Shown here: positions 3,835-64,000 of the stretch, one piece after another
Numbering within the stretch: position 1 is the stretch's first letter
Layout: every line of letters starts with the position of its first letter
DNA from: Lama guanicoe
Lineage: Eukaryota
Assembly: GCA_013239625.1 (NCBI GenBank)
Contig: MU053652.1
Location: 5,881,902 to 5,945,901, forward strand
Length of the DNA: 64,000 nt
Reading direction: 5' to 3'
Notes under the pieces: model-generated
Database searches by the model: none
The model's input: the letters and a program-made list of their open reading frames with translations, nothing else
What the model was told of the DNA's origin: nothing
Translations under genes and position numbers: made by a program

Positions 3835-4337
3835 TGAGATCAAAGATGGCTGCGCACATTTGCTACTCCTCTCATTGAGAAACAGTGTCTAATTTCATTC
3901 CTCTTGAATTTTGTCTGGCTTTAGTGGCTTGTTTGACCAACAAATGCAGTGGAAGTGACGTTCTGGAACTTCTGAGGCTGTGTCAGAAGAAACCTTACAA
4001 CTTCTGTCCAGGACTCTTAGGACATTTTCTCTGAGAAGGCTAGACGGCTAAGTAAGGTACCTGACTGGCTGAGACCACCATATTGCAGAAGCCACATGTA
4101 GGTGCTGCGGTCAACGGTCTGGCTGTGCCTACTCTTCTAGCCATTCCCACCAAGATTACGGAAATGTAGTGAAGCTGCCTTGGGCTAACTGGAGCAGCCT
4201 GGCCACTAGGTGAATACCATCAAGTGACTTCTGTCAATGCCTTAAGGCACAAAAGAATAGCTCAGACAGGCCCTTGCTGACTTCTTGATCAACCAAATTA
4301 TAATGGGTGATAAAATAGTTGTTGTAAGAAATGACCA
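3835..4337 (+). mobile_element. MaLR LTR (MLT1F/G/H-like)
   Basis: caaagatggct...ttgtttgaccaacaaatgcagtggaagtgacgttctggaacttctgaggct pattern. The 3' end is interrupted by the L1 at 4338. Confidence 0.75.
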
Positions 4338-4627
4338 TGTCATTCTAGGTGAAGTAAGCCAGAAAGAGAAAGAAAAATACCATATAAGATCGCTCATATG
4401 TGGAATCTAAAAAACAAAAACAAACAAAAACAAAGCATAAATACAGGACAGAAATAGACTCATGGACAGAGAATACAGACTTGTGGTTAACGGGGGGGGG
4501 GGGGGTAGAGGGTGGGAAGGGATAGAATGGGATTTCAAAATTGTAGAATAGATAAACAAGATTACACTGTATAGCACAGGGAAATATACACAAAATGTTA
4601 TGATAAATCACAGAGAAAAAAAAAAAA
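4338..4627 (+). mobile_element. Young L1 fragment (ORF2 end plus partial 3' UTR) with A-tail
   Basis: Perfect 12 bp TSD AAGAAATGACCA (4326-4337, 4628-4639). Closely matches the reverse complement of about 35670-35945. Confidence 0.95.
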
Positions 4628-11466: not shown

Positions 11467-11836
11467 TATTATGGACTGAGTGTGTCCTTCTCAATTTCAT
11501 ATATTGTAGCCAAAACCCCTTATGTGATAGTATTAGGAGGGGGAGTATTTGGGAAGTAACTGGGTTTAGATGAGGTCTTTAGGGTAGAGTCCTCATAATG
11601 GCATTGATGCCCAAGTAAGAGGAGTAGACATCAGAGCTTCCTCTCTCTGTCATGTGAGGAGACAGCAAGAAGGCATCCATCTGCACGTTAGAAAGAGAGC
11701 ACTCACCAGAACCCTGTGCATGCTGGCACCCCGATCTCTGGCTTCCCAGTCTCCAGAGTTGTGAGAAATAAATGCATATTATTTAAGCCACCCAGTCAAT
11801 GGTATTTTGTTACAGCAGCCCAAGCTGACTAAGACA
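11467..11836 (+). mobile_element. MaLR LTR (MLT1A-like)
   Basis: ttatggactgagtgtgtcc...gtgagaaataaa...gcagcccaagctgactaagaca. Confidence 0.9.
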
Positions 11837-22242: not shown

Positions 22243-22669
22243 TGTACAAAAATGTGAAAATAAATGAAGACCACTCAAATGAGAACAAACAAAGCTGTAC
22301 AGAGCTTGTTATATCTCCTGCTACCACCACTTGCACTTGTCAGAGATTCAGAGACAGGCAGGAGAGTAGGAAAGTTTTATACTGAAAAAAAGAAAGAAAG
22401 CAAAGGTTCTAGGTAGTCTCTGATTGGACACTGTTGACATGGAGAAGCTGACTAGAAGTGGGGCATCCTACGTAATTGCTTTTGGGAACACTTTTGGCTT
22501 TTCTGGGTTGGTCCTGAGTTGGAAGTAAGAACAAAAATAGGGAAACTGGCTGAAGCTTTCTGCAGAGGCTGTGGTTTGGTTCCCAGACTGGTTGCTATGG
22601 AGATTGTGGGTCAGATTTCTATTGGCATATATGGTCTGGTCATTGTCCCTTTGTATATTCAGTCTCTCA
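22243..22669 (-). mobile_element. Proviral 3' LTR
   Basis: Minus strand starts TGAGAGACTGAATATAC...GACCAGACCATATATG...CTGACCCACAA. It is preceded by the purine tract AAAGAGGAAGC (22670-22680). TATA-like TATAAAA lies near 22376-22382. Confidence 0.85.
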
Positions 22670-22719
22670 GCTTCCTCTTTGGGTATTTCTCTCACTTGAG
22701 AGAGGTTGGCCAATTCATG

Positions 22720-24300
22720 GGAAGTTAGAAATACAGATCATCACCATCCAGGGAAGGCTTGGTTGCCTCCATAATCATTGGATGGTAAGATCTTTAACTT
22801 CATGTTGTTGTATCATTATGGCTACCTTCTGATAAGAGACTGGCTTAAATCTAGACATATTTAAGACTCTAGATAAAATGCAACAGACCAGCATCATGAT
22901 CACTCTGGCTAAAACCAGAGAAATTAATAGTCCTTGTAAGATACTTTGGAACCAGGGACTCCAATTGCCCAAATCAGTTTATAAGAATGAATTTCATACA
23001 GCATGAGGATCATATTATAGAGGCAGGAAGCTTTTTCTTTAGGCAAAGTATAGGCTGTCCCACCTTGTCTGCTTCATTGACCCACATACAGCAGGAAGTA
23101 TCAGTAAATGGCACAGAGGCCACCGTGATGCACGAACAAATCTAGAGCAATGAGATTGTCCGTTACTGCTTCTTCCAGTGAGTTGAGGGTGATGTGTATT
23201 TCATGTAGGTTAAGGATGATATTGTTGATAACTTCTGCTAGAGTTAATGTTAAGCTTCTAGCTGTTCTTTCTATTTATATGAGTCCTACTGTTGGGAGCT
23301 CTGTCTCATTGTTTATATAAACAGCGAGTCAGTGATTCTTCTGGGTAGAGTGCCTAAGAAATCAAGAGTGGCCTCATTTCGGAGCTTGTGTTTGAATTGG
23401 AATTTCAAGTCTTGATGAGTTATAGAATTAGGGCTCCTATGGACAGAAAAGTGTTGGAGTATTATTCCTGAGTGTTTGAGTTTGAAGTAAACAGAACCAG
23501 ACACCCTGGTCACAAAGGATGTAATAACCAGTAGGGGCACATGGAGAGCCATGATACATAGAATTATTCATGACATGAGGTTGGAACCGAGGCCTTACAC
23601 TCTCTGGGTTACATATATAAATATCTATTACTGTTTTCCAGGTAGCAAGTAATTGGCCCACCATTCAGTGAAGATGATGTAATTTGAATTTAAAATTATT
23701 TAGGATCTGATCAACAGATGGTAATAATTGGTTCTTTTTCTGGGATAGAGAGACAGTAGTAAAGTCACAGGTTGATTTGTTTGAGGCCATTTGTCCATGT
23801 AGGTGCAAGTGGAAATGTCATTGGAGTAATTCCTTATGGTCTCATTAGAGGAGAGCAGGATTGCTGAGAGGTTTTTTTTTTATCAGGAGATAAGAGTAGC
23901 CACCTCTCTAGGAAGCATCTAAAAATTCCTGAACTTGTTCATTTCTGATAGAAGTCCCAACAGTGGTGAGAAACCCCTTTCGATCTAAAGCACTCAAAAA
24001 TCATGTCCTATTTCAAAAGCATACTTGCTCTCTGTATCTATGTTTCTTCAGTCTTTGGCTGGATGACAAACTGTAATAAGCACAGGAAATTCTGCTACCT
24101 GAGCTTATTTTATGTCAATTAAAGGACTCTATTCTAATGGAGAACTTAATATTAGCGATAACATATCCTGCTTGATAACTCCCAGTTTTCATTTCGAGAT
24201 ATAATCCATCCACGCATAACATTAGGTCATTACTGAATCCAAGTAACATTTAGAAAGTTCCTAACTTAGACAAAATAATCATAACTTTTCCCTTCTGGTT
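22720..24300 (-). pseudogene. env: Disrupted retroviral env (gamma-type TM)
   Basis: Minus strand reads TLNSLEEAVTDNLIALDLF (ISU-like), then GLCAI / frameshift / TDTSCCMWVNE (CX6CC), and a hydrophobic anchor WFQSILQGLLISLVLARVIMMLVCCIL. Stops and frameshifts are present; the SU boundary is approximate. Confidence 0.85.
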
Positions 24301-24329
24301 AGGACAGGATGCGGGCTTTGCAGTCGTGA

Positions 24330-25600
24330 ACAGTAATGTGAGACAGAGAGTAGCAAAGTCTTGTAAGAAGGTCATTGACTGGCTGGCAGTGTTGTTTGCT
24401 CTCAGTCAGTGGCAGTGACTGCGCTGTGTGAGGAACCATGAGATCAATCAGGGAGCCTAGAACTAATTCAGAGGAAGCACTGGCAGGTTTTGCAGAAGAA
24501 GCTATTGGCCTGAGACAAGGGGATTACGCCTTGGCAGCCAGGTCAAGGGTGAGGCTATGGGAAGCAATGGGTTTTGGACGTTCTGAGGAAACTGAGTTGA
24601 ACCTTCAACTTGTCCAGGTCGCTTATGTACAGATAGATAAAAGGGCTTTTTGTAGTAAAGGATGCCTAGGGAAGGAGGCTTTTAAAGAGCCTCCTTCAGG
24701 TTACAGACGGCTTGTCTTGTCTTCTCCGGGGAGAGGATCTCTTTTTGAGGCTTTAGCCAGTTCACAGAGAGAGGCTGCAGTTCCAGAAAAAATTGGCACC
24801 TATTATCTGCAATGTCAGTTAAATTTAGAAATCTTCTAAATTGTCATTTTGTGAGGGGACTGGGATAAGTCTGGATAGTCTTTAGTCTACCAGGAGAGTG
24901 TGTTTCCCCCTTTATATAGACAACTCATATCCTAAATAATGGACTCTGTTTGGCAAAACTGTAATTTATTTTGTGAAATGTTATGTCTTTTCCTGCCAAG
25001 GCTTAGAGCAAGCAAGAAGAATCTTTTTTAAAGGCTTTATTGTCCTCTGAAAAGAGTAGGATATCAGCTACATACTCTGTCATAACTAAATCACAGTTTA
25101 GACCTTCTAAGCCTTAATTGAGAATCTGGGAACATAGGAGGAGGCTTTGGTGAACCCCTAAGGCATGACTGTCCGGGTCTTTTGTTTTTCTCTCCAGGTG
25201 AAGACTGTACCAGTCTAGAGGCTCACTGGGAAAGGTAAAGCAGAGAGAAGTGGCTTCATTTGGAACTGATGGCAGGATGGTGTTTGGGTTAGGTACTGCT
25301 GGGAAGTAAGGCATAGGACTTTTGTTGATGGCCCTGAGGTCTTGAACAAATCGGTATCTTCTCTTGTTTGGTTTCTTTGCTGGCAGGACAAGTGCTACAA
25401 AGGCTGCTATAGGAAATGAAAAGGACTTTGGATATAAGACTTTTTTGTCTGTGGACCTGAGGCCTTCTTTTCCTTTTGGCTTCAAGGGATATTGAGAAAG
25501 TCTGAATAGCTGTTTGGTTGGATCTTTCTGAACTTTAATAGGTTCTCCTCCAGCGATTTTTCCTATTTCAGTGGAAATTTTAGCCTGTAGAGTCTGGCAC
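24330..25600 (-). pseudogene. pol: Disrupted retroviral pol (RT and connection; RNase H and integrase not seen)
   Basis: SQYPLKP...YRFVQDLRAIN...PAVPNPNTIL in ORF 25114-25632. YVADILL (decayed YVDD) at 25074-25054. VHYLGY and QFRRFLNLT lie downstream. Confidence 0.9.
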
Positions 25601-25609
25601 CAGGTCATA

Positions 25610-25812
25610 ATAGGCAGAACCATAGGCCCCAAAAGATGGCCACGTCATTATCTCCAGCACCTGTGAATATGTTAGGCTGGATGACAAAGAGTCATTAAAA
25701 CTGCAGGTGGAATTAAGGTTGCTAATCACCTAGCTTTGAGATGGGAGGGCATCTGAAGTTATCCAGGTGAGTGCAGTATAACCACAAGAATCCTTATGAA
25801 CAGAAGAAAGAA
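25610..25812 (+). mobile_element. MLT1D/E-like LTR 5' fragment nested in the provirus
   Basis: taggcagaa...ggccccaaaagatggccacgtc...cctgtgaatatgtta...ggaattaaggttgctaatca. Confidence 0.8.
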
Positions 25813-26049
25813 ACGTTTTTCATTCAAGGGCCCAAGGGTTTCAGTTAAAGATGGAAAAGTAGGGTACAGCTGTGCATTATTTGAAATACCTACCACCTGT
25901 GTGGTATGTTTACTCTGAGGAAGAGGTTGCATAAAGGTGGGAGGGGTTTAATAAAGAAAGAGCAGCTCTTGGATTCACCAGAATGTTGACCACCTATATT
26001 TATAGTTAATTCATCTTGAGTGTTTAACGGCAAGGCAGGATATTGAGTG

Positions 26050-27430
26050 CATTTTCCTTCCTGAGAGCATCCTTACTTATCTGAGTTGAGGGATTTTTTT
26101 TCTTCGACATGGTGTTTAAGCTGGGACAATCTTTTCCCCAGTGATCCTTCCTTCTTCTTTTGTGGTTTCCAATATCTACAAGTGTCCTTGTCAGTGGATG
26201 ATCAGTCAGAAGGTAGGCTACCTAGCCGTGGGATCTGCAGGACCATAAGTTTATTTTGGATCCTGTCTCATTTTTGTTCCAAACCCTTTCAAAATGTTCT
26301 GTAGGATGCTGTCATTCAGGTAGAGGGGTATTTCTTATTCTAATTTCTGCTTATAAATTGGTTCTCCAATTTGAGGTGTAACTCCATTGACAGAATTAGA
26401 TGGAAGGATCGCTGTTACGTCAGCATCTTTTTAAACCCCCAAATATTGCTGAAGATATTTTCCAGTCTATCCTGAATATGTCCTAAAGTTTGAACTTTTC
26501 TCTGTTTGCATGATTGAATTATGGTCTGATCAATTTTTACTGGAAATGCTCAGCACTGGCTTTTATGAGACTTTGCCCTACTTTTTCATCCTTTTCTGAC
26601 TCACAGGCTTATTGTGGAAGGAGAGATCCCATCAGTCCCTTCTTGGGTTAGTCCAGTCAGCTACTGCCATTTAGGACTTAACATCTGAGGTATTCTGACT
26701 AACGTGTGTAAGTTGATATAGGTCAGGCATCCATGGGTCATATGTACTCAAAAGAATTCTAAGTTATTCTAATTGCTGGTCTTGTCTGTGCTTAGGGAAG
26801 TCCTTGATTATTGCTTATAATTCAGCTCACATCTGAGGTATGAATTCTAGAGTTGCCTGCGTGCCTGGCTCCGGAAGGGACAGAGCTTTCGAGGCAACTG
26901 GCTCTTTAGGACCTCTGAAGACGCTTTGGGAGGGTGTAGGGCGTCTGGACAAGGGGAAGAGGGAGGACAAGATGGCTGAGGAGTGGAAGGAGAAGTGGAA
27001 GAGGGAAACCTGGATCCCAGGAGGCAGTGGAGGACAAGCAGGGAATGGATTTCCCAGGGAAATGGGCCTCGCTTACTCTTGCTCAAGTCTGTCAAATTGC
27101 TCACCAGCCTTGGCCCAAGATTCTTTTAAAGAATTTTTGGGTCAGAATTTCATTTGGAGGCCTCTGCACACCAATCAAGAAACGTTGCCCATTGGGCTTG
27201 AGAAATCTTATTCCCTTTTTCACTAAGCCACCTCTGAAATGAACAATTTTGTTTAAGTCAAACATTCCCCGAGTGGCCTCTGAAGGCTCAAAAGTCCTCA
27301 GTCAAGTTACGCCATTTAGAGAGAGATGCCCAAGAATTCGGATTGTACTGAGAGTTCATAGCATAAGCAGGAGTTTTACTTGCAGGAGGGGACTTAGATT
27401 AGACGACCCGTGAGACCTGGCGATGGACAG
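26050..27430 (-). pseudogene. gag: Disrupted retroviral gag
   Basis: MA-like GMFDLNKIVHFR and AQWATFLDW, a Pro/Ser-rich linker (~26900-27030), and CA-like AEL*AIIKDFP...RILLSTYDPWMPDLYQL. Confidence 0.75.
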
Positions 27431-27825
27431 CCAAAGGTGACACCTATGTACTTTCTGTCTCAGGCTTCCAACCAGTTGGCTGCCTATAAAAACAGACCTG
27501 ACAGTCTGTGCCTCCTGGCAGGCAGAAAAGTGGAGAGAACACTGTTTCCGGATCAAAGCCAAGCTCTTAGGACAAAAAAAGTTGAAACAGAAGCAAGGCC
27601 TCATTCATTTTTATTGATGACTCACAGCAAAGTTTGCGGAACTGGAATGATGGTCTGGGCACTAGTCTAATGAAAACCTGCAAACTCGCTGGTCTGTGAT
27701 GCTGGCTCCGACAACAGGCTCGCAGGGCCGGCGCCTGCGTTCCACCCTGTGAGTCTCCTTCACAGTGTGGTTAGATTGCTGTGGTGTTATGGTAAACAAC
27801 ACTTCTAGACAGCACAACACAACAG

Positions 27826-27847
27826 CACACACACACACACACACACA
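27826..27847. repeat. (CA)n microsatellite in the proviral leader
   Basis: Directly visible CA run. Confidence 0.9.
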
Positions 27848-28086
27848 AAAGAGTGAAAAGGGATGAAAAGGAATTGCCTGCTGAGGATGTCAAACAAATG
27901 AGAACCAATAACAAAACCTGGGAACCAAACACGACCAACAGCTGAGAACTCAGTGAAAGCGAGCGGAGGTCGCTTTCTGAGCTACGGCATCTCTGTGGGC
28001 CGGATAGGCAAGGCACTAGGGATATCCTTGGGTACCGCACCTGACCGAGGCCCAGGGCCGGCAGCAATGGCCAGTGCAGACGGTTC

Positions 28087-28105
28087 CTCCGTGGACAGCT
28101 CGGAA
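28087..28105 (-). other. Degenerate primer-binding site (tRNA-Arg-like)
   Basis: TTCCGAGCTGTCCACGGAG just inside the 5' LTR resembles TGGCGAGCCAGCCAGGAG (about 13/18 with one gap). Confidence 0.5.
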
Positions 28106-28109
28106 ATAC

Positions 28110-28549
28110 TGTGGAAACAACAGAGACTGAGAGAGAATGAGAATAAATGGAGTTACCTACTCAGAGCTTGCCCTAGCACGAGGGTCAGCCGCAGTCACTT
28201 CATTTGTCAGAAGCTCAAAGACAGGCAGGGGAAAGAGAAAGCTTCCTACTCAAGAAAACAAAAAAGGATGGTTTTAGGTTTGCTCTGATTGGATGTTATT
28301 GGCATGAAGGCGGATGAGGGGTGGGGCGTCTGAGGTGATTGGTTTGGGGGGCACAGTCAGCTTTCTCTGGTTGATGGTGGAAGCAGAGCCGGGACAATGA
28401 CAGACGTCGACTTGGTCGAGTTCTGAGTTTTCTGGGCCAATTCCTGCAGAGGCTGTGTTTGGCTCCAGAGGCTGATTACTGTAGGGGTGGTGGGTCCGAG
28501 TTCTGCTGTCATTTATGGTCTGGCCGTTGTCGGTGCACTCAGGCTCTCA
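28110..28549 (-). mobile_element. Proviral 5' LTR
   Basis: Collinear with 22243-22669 (cagagcttg, ttgtcaga, agacaggcagg, ctctgattgga, ctgcagaggctgtg, tatggtctgg, ctctca). Confidence 0.85.
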
Positions 28550-34360: not shown

Positions 34361-35535
34361 AGCACAGTCTTATTTCAAAAGCCAAAGCTCTCTTTACCAC
34401 CGCTCCTGCTGCACAGGGTGCCCATCCCTGGAGCTACCTCCAACTTGAACTGATCATTCAAATTAATCCTAGGAGTATGCAAGGAGAGCTTATTGAAGTG
34501 ACCCTATCCCTGTGAGGTGGGCATAACCACATCTCCCCCTCTCCCCAAAGCAAAGGAATATATTCATATTTTCACTCAGTTTTCCTTTGTCTTATACTTC
34601 CGGACTAACTTACGTGGATCTGTTTTCTCCCTATCAGAACTTTCCTGGGTGTCTTTGTTCCATCTTGGTAAGATGCAAACACCGAAGCCTTTGCCGCTAA
34701 TCCTTAGTTACACACTGCGAATCTGTCCTTGCGTTTGTGAAGGTGATGAACACTACGCAATGGGAGAAAATGCTCTCAAATATTAATCCCAATATAGTGC
34801 ATAGCAAACTGCAGAGAGGGGACTTGGCGCTGTGTAAATCTGGAAAGAAATTCTGAGATGTTCTTTGATACAGAACTTAGAGTATCAGGATGTCACTTGA
34901 TTCTCCTTATAGAGTTATTTTCTTTTTGCACTTTTTCTGCAGATGTGACTTTATCCCCAAAGAAGACAATCCGGAATCTCTTTCAAATGCTGTATTGGTG
35001 GTTAGCTATACTTCTGTGCATTAAATAGACTTGCTCAATATTTATCTCCTTATTCCTCCTTTTAATGTGAACTTAAAAATGTATCTTTAGACAGTATCAG
35101 GCTTAAGCCAGACACAAGTTTATATTGGTGTTTGGGGAAGAAGGGGCAGCAAATTTGGAATGCCTTTGTTATTTTACACTATCTTAGTGCCAGTTATGGA
35201 TTTTGGAATAATATTTCATGTGCTAGGAGTAGCTTTTATCCAGTGATTAGACCTTCAATTTTTTAGCACTTTTCCCCTAAATCTCTTAAGGTCAAAAATC
35301 ATGAATAAATCCATGCTTGATAGACTGAAAGGTCTTAGCTTCAGAGAGTTGTCAGTAGACTTCAAATTGGAGCAGTCTTTCAGTTCTCTTACTTGCAAGT
35401 TATTGATAAATTTGCACACCGCTGGCTGCAGATCTAATGAATATATTCATGGACCATGAAGCATGGTTTGGTATTTAGAAGAATCCAAGATGTGATTTTT
35501 TTTTTAAATTACATTGAGTTGGAAATGTTATTTAT

Positions 35536-37131
35536 TTATTTATTTATTTATTTATTTTTTAACATTTTTTATTGATTTATAATCATTTTACAATGTTGTG
35601 TCAAATTCCAGTGTTCAGCACAATTTTTCAGTCGTTCATGGACATATACACACTCATTGTCACATTTTTTTCTCTGTGATTTATCATAACATTTTGTGTA
35701 TATTTCCCTGTGCTGTACAGTGTAATCTTGCTTATCTATTCTACAATTTTGAAATCCCAGTCTATCCCTTCCCACCCTCTACCCCCCTGGTAACCACAAG
35801 TCTGTATTCTCTGTCCATGAGTCTATTTCTGTCCTGTATTTACGGTTTGTTTTTGTTTGTTTGTTTGTTTTTTAGATTCCACATATGAGCGATCTCATAT
35901 GGTATTTTTCTTTCTCTTTCTGGCTTACTTCACTTAAAACGACATTCTCTAGGAGCATCCATGTTGCTGCAAATGGCATTATGTTGTCGGTTTTTATGGC
36001 TGAGTAGTATTCCATTGTATAAATATACCACCTCTTCTTTATCCAGTCACCTGTTGATGGACATTTAGGCTGTTTCCATGTTTTGGCTATTGTAAATAGT
36101 GCTGCTATGAACATTGGGGTGCAGGTGTCATCCTGAAGTAGATTTCCTTCTGGGTACAAGCCCAGGAGTGGGATTCCTGGGTCATATGGTAAGTCTATTC
36201 CTAGGCTTTTGAGGAATCTCCACACTGTTTTCCATAGTGGCTGCACCAAACTGCATTCCCACCAGCAGTGTAGGAGGGTTCCCCTTTCTCCACAGCCTCT
36301 CCAGCATTTGTCATTTTTGGATTTTTGAATGACGGCCATTCTGACTGGTGTGAGGTGATACCTCATTGTAGTTTTGATTTGCATTTCTCTGATAATTAGT
36401 GATATTGAGCATTTTTTCATGTGCTTTTTGATCATTTGTATGTCTTCCTTGGAGAATTGCTTGTTTAGGTCTTCTGCCCATTTTTGGATTGGGTTGTTTA
36501 TTTTTTTCTTATTGAGTCGTATGAGCTGCTTATATATTTTGGAGATCAAGCCTTTGTCGGTTTCACTTGCAAAAATTTTCTCCCATTCCGTAGGTTTTCT
36601 TCTTGTTTTATTTCTGGTTTCCTTTGCTCTGCAGAAGCTTGTAAGTTTCATTAGGTCCCATTTGTTTATTCTTGCTTTTATTTCTTCTAGGAGAAAATTT
36701 TTGAAATGTATGTCAGATAATGTTTTGCCTATGTTTTCCTCTAGGAGGTTTATTGTATCTTGTCTTATGTTTAAGTCTTTAATCCATTTTGAGTTGATTT
36801 TTGTATATGGTGTAAGGGTGTGTTCTAGCTTCATTGTTTTACATGCTGCTGTCCAGTTTTCCCAACACCATTTGCTGAAGAGACTGTCTTTATTCCATTG
36901 TATATTCTTGCCTCCTTTGTCGAAGATGAGTTGACCAAAAGTTTGTGGGTTCATTTCTGGGCTCTCTATTCTGTTCCATTGGTCTATATGTCTGTTTTGG
37001 TACCAATACCATGCTGTCTTGATGACTGTAGCTCTATAGTATTGTCTGAAGTCTGGGAGAGTTATTCCTCCAGCCTCTTTCGTTCTCTTCAGTAATGCTT
37101 TAGCAATTCTAGGTCTTTGATGGTTCCATAT
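35536..37131 (-). mobile_element. Young 5'-truncated L1 (~1.6 kb) with complete 3' UTR and (TAAA)n tail
   Basis: TSD aaatgttatttat at 35523-35535 and 37132-37144. ORF2 is open throughout. Confidence 0.97.
35872..37131 (-). pseudogene. L1 ORF2p C-terminal fragment (~420 open codons, no EN/RT core, no promoter)
   Basis: The 360 aa ORF extends upstream without stops ([11 protein letters not shown]...TAWYW...IESPEMNP). Cys-rich motif [18 protein letters not shown] is intact. Confidence 0.95.
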
Positions 37132-39059
37132 AAATGTTATTTATGACTGGATATTTTAAATAAATAATTAAAATTAAGAATATGTGCCATTGTACTTTTA
37201 ATTCCAGATTAAGTGTGAAATATGTAAATAATAAATGGCAAATCACAAATGATGTTCTTGGACCATTCCGTTTAAGCCATCTTTACTAATGCTAATCACA
37301 ACACAGATGAAGTATTTATAAGAATTAAGAGGTTTAGTGTGGTAACTCTGATTAAATCCTAACGTTTATACTGACAGAAAAGCTGGGAGAATTATCAACT
37401 GTGAATATCTCAGGGATTAATGATCTGCAATTCTGATGACAACTCCTAGGGTGGGGGTGGGAAGCCCCCAGATTAAATGATCGTTTCTATAGTCTGGAGT
37501 GCAGTTTGATCTCTGTTTTTCAGTAAACAAATTAGAATTTTTAAATGTCCAATTTTATTCTCCCACTCAAGGGGGAAGAACAGAGCATTTTCTTTCCTGA
37601 AAGCATATCTTGAAGAAAAGCAAGATGGTGAGCTCAGAGCTCAGAACTCCGAGCAGGACTAAGTCTAGAACTGATCTGAACCCTAACCGGCCCTCCAAAA
37701 ATGTTTCTTGGAATGATGATTTGAATACTTCTTGGCTGGTAGTGAAAATAATGTCTATGATAGAGTTTTTCTTTCTGAAGAGTCTGTTAAAAGGAGAATC
37801 TTAGTAAACTAATTCTATGCCATGCATTCACAGAGGTCAGCATGCCCTCCTAGACCCAACATGGAGAAATGGGCACACTGTCAACCGCCAGGGAGGTGGC
37901 ATTTTATGCACAGTTCATTTTTAACTTAAAGGAATTTGGTGTGTCAACACTAAGTCAGCAGACTCCCATTCTCCAGTGTGTTATAATTATTAATGGGACA
38001 CACTTACTAGGAGCTTTGATAAATGATCAACTTAAATCCTGCCATCGTAAATACCACCAAATCCTGCAAGACATGTAGGTCAGTGTGATGACCGGCTTGC
38101 CCAGTGTATCATTATGGTCACAGACCCAGCTCAGTGGTCTTTTCAATCATTTGCTGGTCATTTATGTTTCCTTCTTTGATAAACACCACATTTTGAAGAT
38201 GTGAATTAATTTTTACCAAATCTGAAGCTATAGTAATATCGAGAGAACTTTAAATTCCCATTTTAAAAATGATGCTGATATCTGCTTCCTGGACATATGC
38301 CTTCTTAGGACATTTTTGTAAAATTTGATATGTGGAGTCTTATTCATTTAAGGAAAAATGCTTCAAATGGGCATGTGCCTTCCTCACATTGATTGATTTC
38401 TTTCTGTGTTCTTTCTTCAATTTACAAAGGTACATTCTCGCTAAAATTTATTGAAGTCATTGGTTTAATTAGAATTTAGCTCTGTATAAATTTTGGTCTT
38501 TGAAATTTGAACTTACTCTTGTTGAGAAAACTTGCAATCTGAAATTCTTTTAAAGATAGCATTATCAGTTGAATGGTAAAATATTCATCATTTTATTTTA
38601 AATTACTGTTATTTGTAGATTAGGTTGATGTTTTAAATTTGAGGTGACTGTAAAGAGAGAACGCTACCGAAATTTTAGGATTGTTATTTATCAGTCTGTA
38701 TTGTTTCCACTTCACCAGCTACGGTTATGTACATTTGATAACTTTAATCTTCTCTTTCACCGTGTAAACTTGTGGATGATTTTGTGCTTATGTTTATTCC
38801 ATCTGGACCCTCATTTATTTGGACAACTGGGTAATGCCTAAAGGCCCCCAACTTTTTCCTGAGGAGGAAACTGCCTTAATTTTCAGCTGCTTTGTAAACA
38901 GCAAAATAGTGAATATCTCTGAAAGGTGGCTATTATTCAGGACTTTTCTCCTGCAGGGAACCCTGGGGGTCTAGAGAGGGGTTTGTGACTATAGAAGCCA
39001 GTTTACCAATTATGAAAGAGTTTAACCATGGAGACCAACCTTTTAGAGGCCCTCTTTTT

Positions 39060-55109: not shown

Positions 55110-55400
55110 AAGGTGATGATAAGAATGACAACATCCCCTTATATCACACTTACTATTTCCAACACGCTCTTCAGACTGCTTTAAATATATTAGCTCATTT
55201 AATTATGGCAACCTCTATAGGATGAGATACTATTGATATCTCCATTTTACAGATAAGGAAATTGAGGCATAAGATATTGGGGGACTTAATCAAATTCCCA
55301 TAAATGTAAATAATGTAAATGATGTAGTAAATGATGGTCCTGAGATCTGAGCACAGGAGGACTGGCTGCAGAACTGTTGTTCCCAATCATTGAACTAAAT
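55110..55400 (-). mobile_element. MIR SINE
   Basis: ctcatttaatt...ccattttacagataaggaaattgaggc core. Confidence 0.8.
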
Positions 55401-55617
55401 TACCCTTTTCATGGTTATTGAATGAGTATGTGAATGTATATCCTGGGTTTAAATTGTGATTTCTTTTTTTGTGTAATTGGAAAAGTGTTGCACATTATAG
55501 AAGGTTAAGTATTTTCCAGCCCCACATAACAAATAATGGTGTCCATTTCTTCACTATATAATTTGCCAGATGTCCTACATTATCTCAATCCTCACAACAA
55601 CAAGCATGCAACATAGG

Positions 55618-56083
55618 TGTTGGGCCAACTGACATTGTTCAAAGTTCAATGACCCCCATTTCTGCGCTCTCAGATAAAGTACATTCTTAACTGGGGGTGT
55701 TTCCCTTAGAATCAGAAAGTTGTGGTTTTTTTTGGTTTTGGGTTTTTTTTTTTTTAATAAACAACATTTATTTCTCACAGTTCTGGAGGCTGGAAAGTCC
55801 AAGACAAAGGTGGCAGCAGATTCAATGTCTGGTGAGGGCCCTCTTCCTGGTCCACACACAGCTGTCTTCTCACTGCATCCTCACACAGCAGAAGAGGCAA
55901 GGGAGCTCTCCAGGGTCTCTTTTATAAGGGCACTAATCCAACTCATGAGGGCTCCATCCTCATGATCCAGTTGTTGTGGGCTATTAGTTTGTTAGGGGAA
56001 ACACGCCCAGTAAAGAATGTACTTTATCTGAGAGCCCAGAGATGGGGGTCATTGGACTTCAAAGGACATTAATTGGCCCAACA
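55618..56083. mobile_element. Unclassified foldback/MITE-like element: 91 bp TIRs, TG...CA ends, 5 bp TSD
   Basis: 55618-55708 vs reverse complement of 55993-56083: 77/91 identical, ungapped. Flanks ATAGG (55613-55617) and GTAGG (56084-56088). Confidence 0.85.
55726..55972 (-). mobile_element. Polyadenylated partial MLT1A LTR copy (retrocopy-like)
   Basis: MLT1A sequence runs to AATAAA (55772-55767), then 11 nt, then an A-rich tail (55755-55726). U5 is missing. gttgtgg occurs at 55719-55725 and 55973-55979. Confidence 0.8.
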
Positions 56084-56299
56084 GTAGGTATAAATTTCCA
56101 TTGTATGAGTAAAGGATAAGAGATTCAAGAGGCATGGTTTCAAATTTTCATCTGTCCGATCTCAGAGCCCATGCTTTTTGGCATTTTTGTTTTGTAGAAG
56201 AGAGGATGTAATCCGGGCCTTCTTGGATGTGTAGAGTTTAAATTAGGGGAGAAGAAAATGTTGAGCCTTAAAGGTGAATTGAAATTTATGAATTATACC

Positions 56300-57270
56300 C
56301 TGAATAACCAATTAAAAATAAAATTAAAAATTCTATTCCATAAAGCTTGAAAACGCAAAATACTGAGGAATTACTTAAAAATAAATGAGGGAGTGACATA
56401 TCTTTCTGAGTGAGGATTCCAAAAGATTTGAGTGGTTGGAGATCTTGTGTCCCCAAATGGGAAGACTGAATAGTGCAGCTAAGTCAAGTCTTCTGCAACT
56501 AATTTTAAAAATTGATGCAATTCTAATAAGAGCTTCAATTTTTCGAACAATTTTAAATAATTCTAAGGTTTATTAGAGAAAATAATTAATAATTTAAAAA
56601 ATAAAGGTACTGATAGAATTTGCATGAACAGATGGTACAACTTATTACAGAATTATAATAATTATAAAAAAGGGAGTATTGATGTATTAAGAGACAAGTG
56701 ACTTAGAACAGAAACTCTGTGTGTGTGTGTGTGTGTGTGTGTGCATGTGTGTGTGTGTGTGTGTGTATGTGTGTGTGTATATATATATATCTCCAAGAAT
56801 ATATAGGAGTCTATGTGTTTAAAATGACTTTATATAAATTGATAGAAAAATATTCATTCAATTGTCTGGGAGAATTGGTTCACAGTTTAGAAAACCTAAA
56901 GTTAGATTTCTACTTTGGACCAAATGTCACATTAAGTATCAAGAGTTAAATGCAAAAATCTGAATCCATTAAGTGAATCACAATACAAGAATTATAAAAA
57001 CCATGTTTTCTTACAATGTCAGGAATTTCTCACTATAGGTGAAGTGCATATTGCATATTTATTAAAAAGTATACACATAATTATCTTAATTTTTAAAAAT
57101 AAAGAGGGAAGGAGGAGTGCTATAAGGCAATAGACCAATGTGCAAATGGTGGTTAACATGGTGGGCTATTATATATTCCTTCTTTTTTTCTTTATACTTT
57201 TCCCCCAAACATTTCTACAAAGACTGTGATTTGTTTCTGTAGCTAAAAAAACCCCACATTTTTTAAAAGG
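56300..57270 (+). mobile_element. Highly decayed L1ME-like fragment
   Basis: aaaatactgaggaatt, atgggaagactgaatagtg, tattcattcaattgtctgggagaattgg, aaagttagatttctactt. Confidence 0.6.
56718..56790. repeat. Compound (TG)n(TA)n microsatellite
   Basis: Directly visible. Confidence 0.95.
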
Positions 57271-63658: not shown

Positions 63659-64000
63659 TGCTATAGACAGAATGTGTTCCCCCCAAATTCCTGTGTTGAA
63701 ACCCTATCCCCTAATGTGATGGTATTTGGAGGCGGACCTTTGGGAGGTGATTAGAATTAGATACCGCCATGAGGGTAGAGCCCTCATGAATGGCATTAGT
63801 GCCCTTCGAAGAGTCACGGGAGAGCTTGCTTCCTCTCTGCTCTTTGCCATAAGTAAACGGCTGCCTGAAATGCCAGAAGAGAGCCTTCATCAGAACCCAG
63901 ACAGGCTGGCATCCTGAGCCAGGACTTTCAGACTCAGAGCTGTGAGAAATAAAATTCTTCTTGTTTACAAGCCACTCAGTCCATGATAATTTATCATAGC
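63659..64000 (+). mobile_element. MaLR LTR (MLT1A-like), runs off the window edge
   Basis: tgctatagacagaatgtgttccccccaaattc...gccctcatgaatggcattagtgccc...gtgagaaataaa. Confidence 0.9.

Follow-up and report, generated by a model that had tools for sequence, protein, structure and literature searches.

The window (the whole 64-kb stretch of DNA that was analyzed), which is mammalian to judge by what we take to be an L1 ORF2 end and a broken pol-like frame, carries a foldback structure lodged in a likely SINE and interrupted in its middle by a second insertion. The left arm (91 bp; positions 55618 to 55708, plus strand) starts with TGTTG, and the right arm (91 bp; 55993 to 56083, minus strand) is its inverted counterpart, with its CAACA end on the plus strand; both were delimited by inverted-repeat alignment. 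Between the arms, a nonpalindromic spacer of about 30 bp is divided, on the plus strand, into a left part (55709 to 55725), whose last seven bases, GTTGTGG (55719 to 55725), form one copy of a direct repeat, and a right part (55980 to 55992), which is preceded by the second copy of that repeat (55973 to 55979). The nested insert occupies the intervening positions, 55726 to 55972, on the minus strand. Immediately outside the arms, and likewise read on the plus strand, a comparison of the flanks yields ATAGG (55613 to 55617, with a C before it) and GTAGG (56084 to 56088) as the two copies of a candidate 5-bp target-site duplication (TSD), and these are in turn bordered by the likely left (55545 to 55612) and right (56089 to 56180) parts of the host SINE.

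The two arms align as ungapped inverted repeats that are identical at 77 of 91 positions, with coordinates and counts exactly as the original prediction, made from the letters of this DNA, had given them. The alignment holds without an indel across 91 bp, and the 14 mismatches consist of 10 transitions and 4 transversions, among them the CA/TG pairs that had also been predicted and that were found at arm positions 16 to 17 and 23 to 24. The outermost 11 bp are identical in both arms (11/11), and complementarity ends exactly at 55618 and 56083, that is, at TG and CA. The resulting ends, TGTTG...CAACA, conform to the pattern TGTNR...YNACA, and the flanks predicted to adjoin them, ATAGG and GTAGG, are correct.

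A chance inverted repeat was rejected because both the inverted-repeat score (a top value of 49, compared with at most 16 in 30 shuffles) and the folding of the 476-nt stretch (z = −12.6; 0 of 100 shuffles equally stable) lie far beyond what shuffled sequence attains. In the 64-kb window, the foldback pair is the sole inverted repeat with a spacer of <1.5 kb at E < 1e-3. Without its middle, the structure was expected to be a hairpin of about 210 to 220 bp, and it indeed measures 212 bp (91 + 30 + 91) and folds as a single hairpin at −73.8 kcal/mol (shuffles, −22.0 ± 3.1 kcal/mol; best of 100, −29.3 kcal/mol), with 86% of the unit made up of the long inverted repeat. In common with MITEs, this 212-bp unit is short and noncoding and is bounded by TIRs, here the 91-bp arms. 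The foldback is thus a genuine, well-formed structure with ends that are uncommon for a mammal. Nine of the 14 arm mismatches fall within arm positions 12 to 29 (55629 to 55646 and 56055 to 56072), between the perfect 11-bp end and an inner stem that matches at 57 of 62 positions (permutation p = 0.002 for a segment picked post hoc, with 4 of the 9 in CpG-type pairs), and the arms may have been unequal in this segment from the outset, as are the subterminal regions of transposons.

The middle of the structure had been regarded in the original prediction as cargo of the element, and this view was not borne out; captured transposon cargo is ruled out by an A tail and a direct repeat that belong to the insert itself. 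On the minus strand, the insert consists of a partial LTR copy (about 55756 to 55968) with a poly(A) signal, a gap of about 11 nt, and then a 30-nt interrupted A tail (55726 to 55755). The LTR piece is 70 to 87% identical to window repeats at 576 to 641, 11640 to 11774, and 63768 to 63953, and we assume that it belongs to MaLR/MLT1. Two of these relatives (576 to 641 and 11640 to 11774) run 50 to 60 nt beyond the position of the tail to their own ends, a part (U5) that the nested copy does not have. The bordering 7-bp repeat GTTGTGG is perfect (7/7; chance of 0.0001 at one fixed spacing). Taken together, these features suggest that the insert is likely a later, L1-made retrocopy of an LTR transcript. 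The closest described parallel that we considered is provided by the L1-processed HERV-W LTR transcripts, in which the 3′ LTR is cut at the poly(A) site (U3-R without U5) and is followed by a tail, the copy being flanked by a TSD of 5 to 15 nt (PMC5537654). Like these, the nested insert is without U5, is tailed, and has a TSD within that range (7 nt); unlike these, it comprises only about 210 nt of LTR, is likely of MaLR type, and has no TT/AAAA nick motif at its junction. Given that HERV-W is, according to the same review (PMC5537654), the sole human ERV group mobilized by L1 processing, MaLR-type retrocopies in camelids are possibly worth counting.

Several other repeats occur in the window. 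Three LTR repeats akin to the nested insert are located at about 291 to 692, 11470 to 11836, and 63768 to 63953, and the first of them ends inside a GA-rich stretch, which makes its duplication register ambiguous. An old provirus-like element spans about 22330 to 28530, with two repeats that are 71 to 77% identical and about 5.9 kb apart, and contains a broken frame on the minus strand (25114 to 25644) that is presumably pol-like. The 3′ portion of a young L1 was found at 35535 to 37140 on the minus strand, with an open stretch of 422 residues that we take to be the end of ORF2, and a short inverted partner of this portion, 90 to 98% identical, lies 31 kb off at 4337 to 4622. A (TG)n/(TA)n microsatellite (56710 to 56790) is present about 0.6 kb downstream of the foldback.

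Likely host SINE and candidate target-site duplication

The flanks of the foldback presumably belong to a MIR, as does, on the same assumption, a second SINE-like copy (55130 to 55385), which is oriented like the host and situated just upstream of it. The original prediction held that removal of the element restores the MIR core, and this found weak support that did not reach statistical confirmation. Across the junction, the joined flanks align weakly with window SINE copies (best z of 2.6 among seven copies), but their summed score of 1107 falls inside the shuffled range (1022 ± 53; maximum, 1152), and removals of anywhere from 0 to 12 bases are indistinguishable by this measure. Nor were the joined flanks picked up by either of two profile models, which had been constructed from 8 and 5 window stretches. 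The spacing between motifs in the joined flanks is 34 when five bases are removed and 39 when none are; two SINE copies of the window have spacings of 33 and 35, and a duplication of 4 to 6 bases is favored by this measure.

Duplication registers were enumerated within ±4 bases of the arm ends. A 5-bp register, with RTAGG as its target, sits exactly at the ends and has one transition mismatch (4/5); at the same spacing, 2.3% of window positions match by chance in at least 4 of 5 bases, 4.7% allow any fit of 4 to 10 bp, and 13% allow any fit of 2 to 10 bp. The prediction of a genuine 5-bp TSD therefore names the best fit to the junctions, but one that matches at 4 of 5 bases and that coexists with other registers: a perfect 3-bp TAG/TAG if the terminal pair of the arms is mismatched (G versus C), a 4-bp TAGG that requires one extra base, and a perfect TA/TA located two bases outside the left arm and one base outside the right arm. 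PIF/Harbinger elements have 3-bp TSDs with a TWA-type consensus, whereas hAT, MULE, and piggyBac elements leave TSDs of 8 bp, 9 to 10 bp, and TTAA, respectively. Neither TTAA nor any register of 8 to 12 bp with at most one mismatch was found within ±4 bases, and these last three footprints are ruled out, as is a TA duplication directly at the TIRs (Tc1/mariner), in which TA is out of register and both an insertion and a transversion would be required. Against TA in register, TTAA, and footprints of 8 to 12 bp, the ends together with the 5-bp register are, as had been predicted, the most economical reading.

The ten junction bases were also compared under explicit models, giving likelihood ratios that are rough, come from one locus, and depend on assumed rates. 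The 5-bp model is favored 30-fold over the 4-bp model, with or without an assumed credit for the TG end, and its ratios to the remaining models bear on two rival explanations. According to the first, which we consider unlikely, the foldback is an ordinary MITE, perhaps already in Repbase or Dfam, whose end has been misread, the duplication being either TAG (55617 to 56084; PIF/Harbinger-like) or TA (55616 to 56084; Tc1/mariner-like, with an eroded left end). The perfect TAG/TAG and TA/TA repeats that it calls for are present, the 3-bp model is only about 3 times less likely than the 5-bp model on the junction bases (157 times for the TA model), and TSDs of 2 and 3 bp as well as Tc1-mariner and Harbinger-like families are reported in camelids (PMC8605555). 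However, the 3-bp duplication requires a transversion of the terminal base, the TA duplication requires a transversion and an insertion in a structure whose arms are free of indels over 91 bp, and under either one the additional direct-repeat bases and the TG end would be coincidental, so that with the assumed TG term the ratios in favor of the 5-bp model rise to 78 and about 4,700, respectively.

According to the second explanation, to which we assign quite a low probability, the foldback is a one-off templated insertion: in the course of break repair or replication, a piece of about 120 bases from another location would have been copied and turned back on itself, the TG end and the flank match being coincidences singled out by a large scan. 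The single copy seen so far, in the 64-kb window, is in keeping with such an event, and a look-elsewhere effect also speaks for it, many windows having been examined. Weighing against it, a model without duplication is 58 times less likely than the 5-bp model at the assumed rates (686 times with the TG term), the motif spacing favors 4 to 6 removed bases, and the clustered mismatches at arm positions 12 to 29 hint at arms that were originally unequal.

Composition, age, and copies of the arm

Four arm sites have CG or a CA/TG pair, compared with 0.65 CpG expected per arm (p = 0.004), a hint that the incoming DNA was richer in CpG; this count combines two decayed sites with two seen in a single arm, and two sites alone give p = 0.14. 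When CpG-type sites are excluded, the arms differ at 8 of 83 to 10 of 87 positions (95% interval, 4 to 20%). At about 2e-9 neutral substitutions per site per year, this divergence would place the element very roughly at 10 to 50 million years of age, assuming that the arms were identical at first and were not homogenized afterwards.

Translation of the arm in three frames gave no match in Pfam, and one translated frame gave none among 1.84 billion proteins. Over the window, Rfam returned nothing at the gathering threshold (one chance match at E = 0.73), indicating that the foldback matches no known microRNA family, and ARAGORN made no tRNA-type prediction. Neither AATAAA, ATTAAA, nor TATAA occurs on either strand of the insert-free halves, an absence that makes a plain solo LTR less likely; one AGTAAA is present in the right arm.

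These motifs bear on a further explanation, which we think improbable: the arm would derive from the end of a retroviral LTR, and an ERV integrase would have inserted a folded-back or head-to-head copy of that end on one or a few occasions, unless the whole is an unusual palindromic LTR. The combination of TG...CA ends with a TSD of 4 to 6 bp agrees with the rule of thumb given by Dfam for LTRs, which names TG...CA, a poly(A) signal, and a TSD of 4 to 6 bp (PMC7805219). With about 80,000 ERVL and about 140,000 MaLR elements in camel genomes (PMC6675863), the necessary enzymes would have been available, in contrast to a Ginger transposase, and the AGTAAA of the right arm might be counted on the same side. 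Yet that motif is missing from the other arm, the canonical poly(A) signal and TATA motif are lacking, and the arm is unlike any LTR in the window. Among the matches listed for inverted-LTR or aberrant integration in the literature, no title describes such a product, and to our knowledge no route from an LTR end to a clean two-ended palindrome has been established.

Self-BLAST of the arm against the 64-kb window recovered no copy beyond the pair and no match to the window's own LTRs. Among collections in which mammalian repeats are not expected, viral contigs contained no match for an arm 19-mer, and the 7 matches for a gapped pattern were all chance matches without extension; the 10 matches for an arm 18-mer in metagenome contigs were likewise all due to chance (32 to 41 of 91 positions identical, including the 18 that were forced), and prokaryote genomes and plasmids had no arm match. 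In sequencing data, 19 of the 23 runs listed contained 0.73 to 0.91 of the 105 words sampled from the 1.1-kb locus, these shares being word-index values with no read alignment behind them. The 19 runs represent 8 studies, plus one entry naming none, and 6 organism labels, and one of them is possibly the source sample. Since the flanks make up <60% of the 1.1-kb stretch, each of the 19 runs contains at least part of the element, and this recurrence of the locus words makes an assembly artifact unlikely.

Proposed mobilization by an integrase-like enzyme and known systems

The reading that we put forward, tentatively and with somewhat less than even confidence, is that the foldback is a nonautonomous TIR element for whose movement an integrase-like transposase was responsible; it would work in the manner of Ginger2/TDD, kinship to that group being a candidate only. 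Its size and palindromic shape, as in mammalian MITEs, and its exact TGTNR...YNACA ends speak for this reading, whereas the single copy seen in the 64-kb window, the one mismatch in the duplication, and the unfitting targets RTATAY and CCGG/CCGT speak against it. The original prediction of an integrase-moved element is supported in part, by the TG...CA ends and the 5-bp register, for which it is the best fit; the TSDs of animal Ginger2 and Ginger1 do not fit.

If this integrase-like mobilization took place, the two arms would have traveled as a single mobile unit, and a transposase supplied in trans would have attached to at least the terminal 11 bp. This enzyme, an integrase-like DDE protein, would have excised the hairpin and, cutting with a stagger of 5 bases, pasted it into a likely old MIR. 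A G-to-A change through CpG decay would have broken the left duplication, and the L1-made LTR retrocopy would have entered the middle of the hairpin later. It is also conceivable, although we give the idea only a small chance, that a Ginger/TDD-like transposon with an integrase-type transposase and a 5-bp footprint entered the germ line of camelids or early cetartiodactyls, probably horizontally, and that the foldback is one copy of a MITE family left behind by it. In a bolder form of this idea, a resident retroviral integrase would have mobilized the TIR hairpin in trans.

Recent class II activity in mammals is attributed to hAT, piggyBac, Tc-mariner, and Helitron elements (PMC10162687), and non-cetacean artiodactyls show about 20-fold less of it than cetaceans do (10.1101/2022.12.28.522108). 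If the foldback proves to belong to a family dispersed in camelids, mammals would gain an integrase-type cut-and-paste lineage, or retroviral integrases would be shown to move TIR hairpins. A true Ginger-like invasion would concern a DNA-transposon superfamily that the searchable papers do not report as mobile in mammals. Elements of this kind are relevant to how DNA transposons and LTR retroelements are connected; a one-off insertion or a misread ordinary MITE would be a curiosity.

The prior for a Ginger-type reading is low because the mammal and bat surveys are silent on Ginger and because the MITE TSDs reported in camelids are of other lengths. Ginger goes unmentioned in the main texts of a curation of 248 mammals (10.1101/2022.12.28.522108) and of a survey of bat DNA transposons (PMC10162687), both of which focus on young elements. 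The accessible text of the camelid survey likewise does not mention Ginger and gives TSDs of 2, 3, 8, or 10 bp for MITEs, along with Tc1-mariner and Harbinger-like families, but with perfect TSDs and Repbase similarity among its requirements, that survey might have missed the foldback element (PMC8605555). The main text of the GingerRoot paper does not contain the word "mammal" (PMC6839031), and in the accessible part of the Ginger paper (PMC2836005) the mammalian representative is the domesticated Gin-1 gene only, with no transposon. Among the matches listed in the searchable literature, outside which most subscription journals and Repbase Reports lie, none describes a mammalian TIR element with TG...CA ends and a 5-bp TSD. 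The terminal 11-mer is present in 14 papers, and the 13 of these that were listed include no transposon paper by title.

With respect to known systems, LTR elements and DNA transposons cannot be told apart by a 5-bp TSD on its own, whereas TIRs do distinguish them (REPCLASS, PMC2817418). The foldback resembles a solitary ERVL or MaLR LTR in its TG...CA ends and in a TSD within 4 to 6 bp (with one mismatch in the TSD), and it differs from such an LTR in having no canonical poly(A) signal and in consisting mostly of inverted repeat. MER53, a 193-bp palindromic mammalian MITE with a TA TSD (PMC2996404), is similar by description rather than by sequence, the foldback likewise being about 200 bp long, noncoding, and folded into one long hairpin, but no TA TSD is in register at the foldback.

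Among integrase-related TIR transposons, Ginger1 has TIRs of 40 to 270 bp and GingerRoot has TIRs of 100 to 150 bp, the latter with a 6-bp TSD and elements of 3.9 to 12.9 kb (PMC2836005, PMC6839031). The foldback shares with both the TG-type ends and TIRs of comparable length; it is unlike Ginger1 in that its flanks are not CCGG/CCGT, and unlike GingerRoot in its 212-bp size and in its 5-bp rather than 6-bp register. The animal groups leave 4-bp TSDs, at RTATAY in Ginger2 and as CCGG/CCGT in Ginger1 (PMC2836005). In comparison with animal Ginger2, the foldback has RTAGG as its target and not RTATAY, a preference that one site does not exclude, and a 4-bp TSD would need an extra base; it also differs from Ginger2/TDD in being without a transposase. 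The pattern TGTNR...YNACA is that of Ginger and Gypsy termini, and Ginger2/TDD elements have TGTNR termini and TIRs of 50 to 180 bp (PMC2836005). The TGTTG at both ends of the foldback fits these termini, its 91-bp TIRs fall inside that range, and its candidate 5-bp TSD, here with one mismatch and at a single locus, would have the length of that in TDD-4 and TDD-5 in the slime mold Dictyostelium (PMC2836005).
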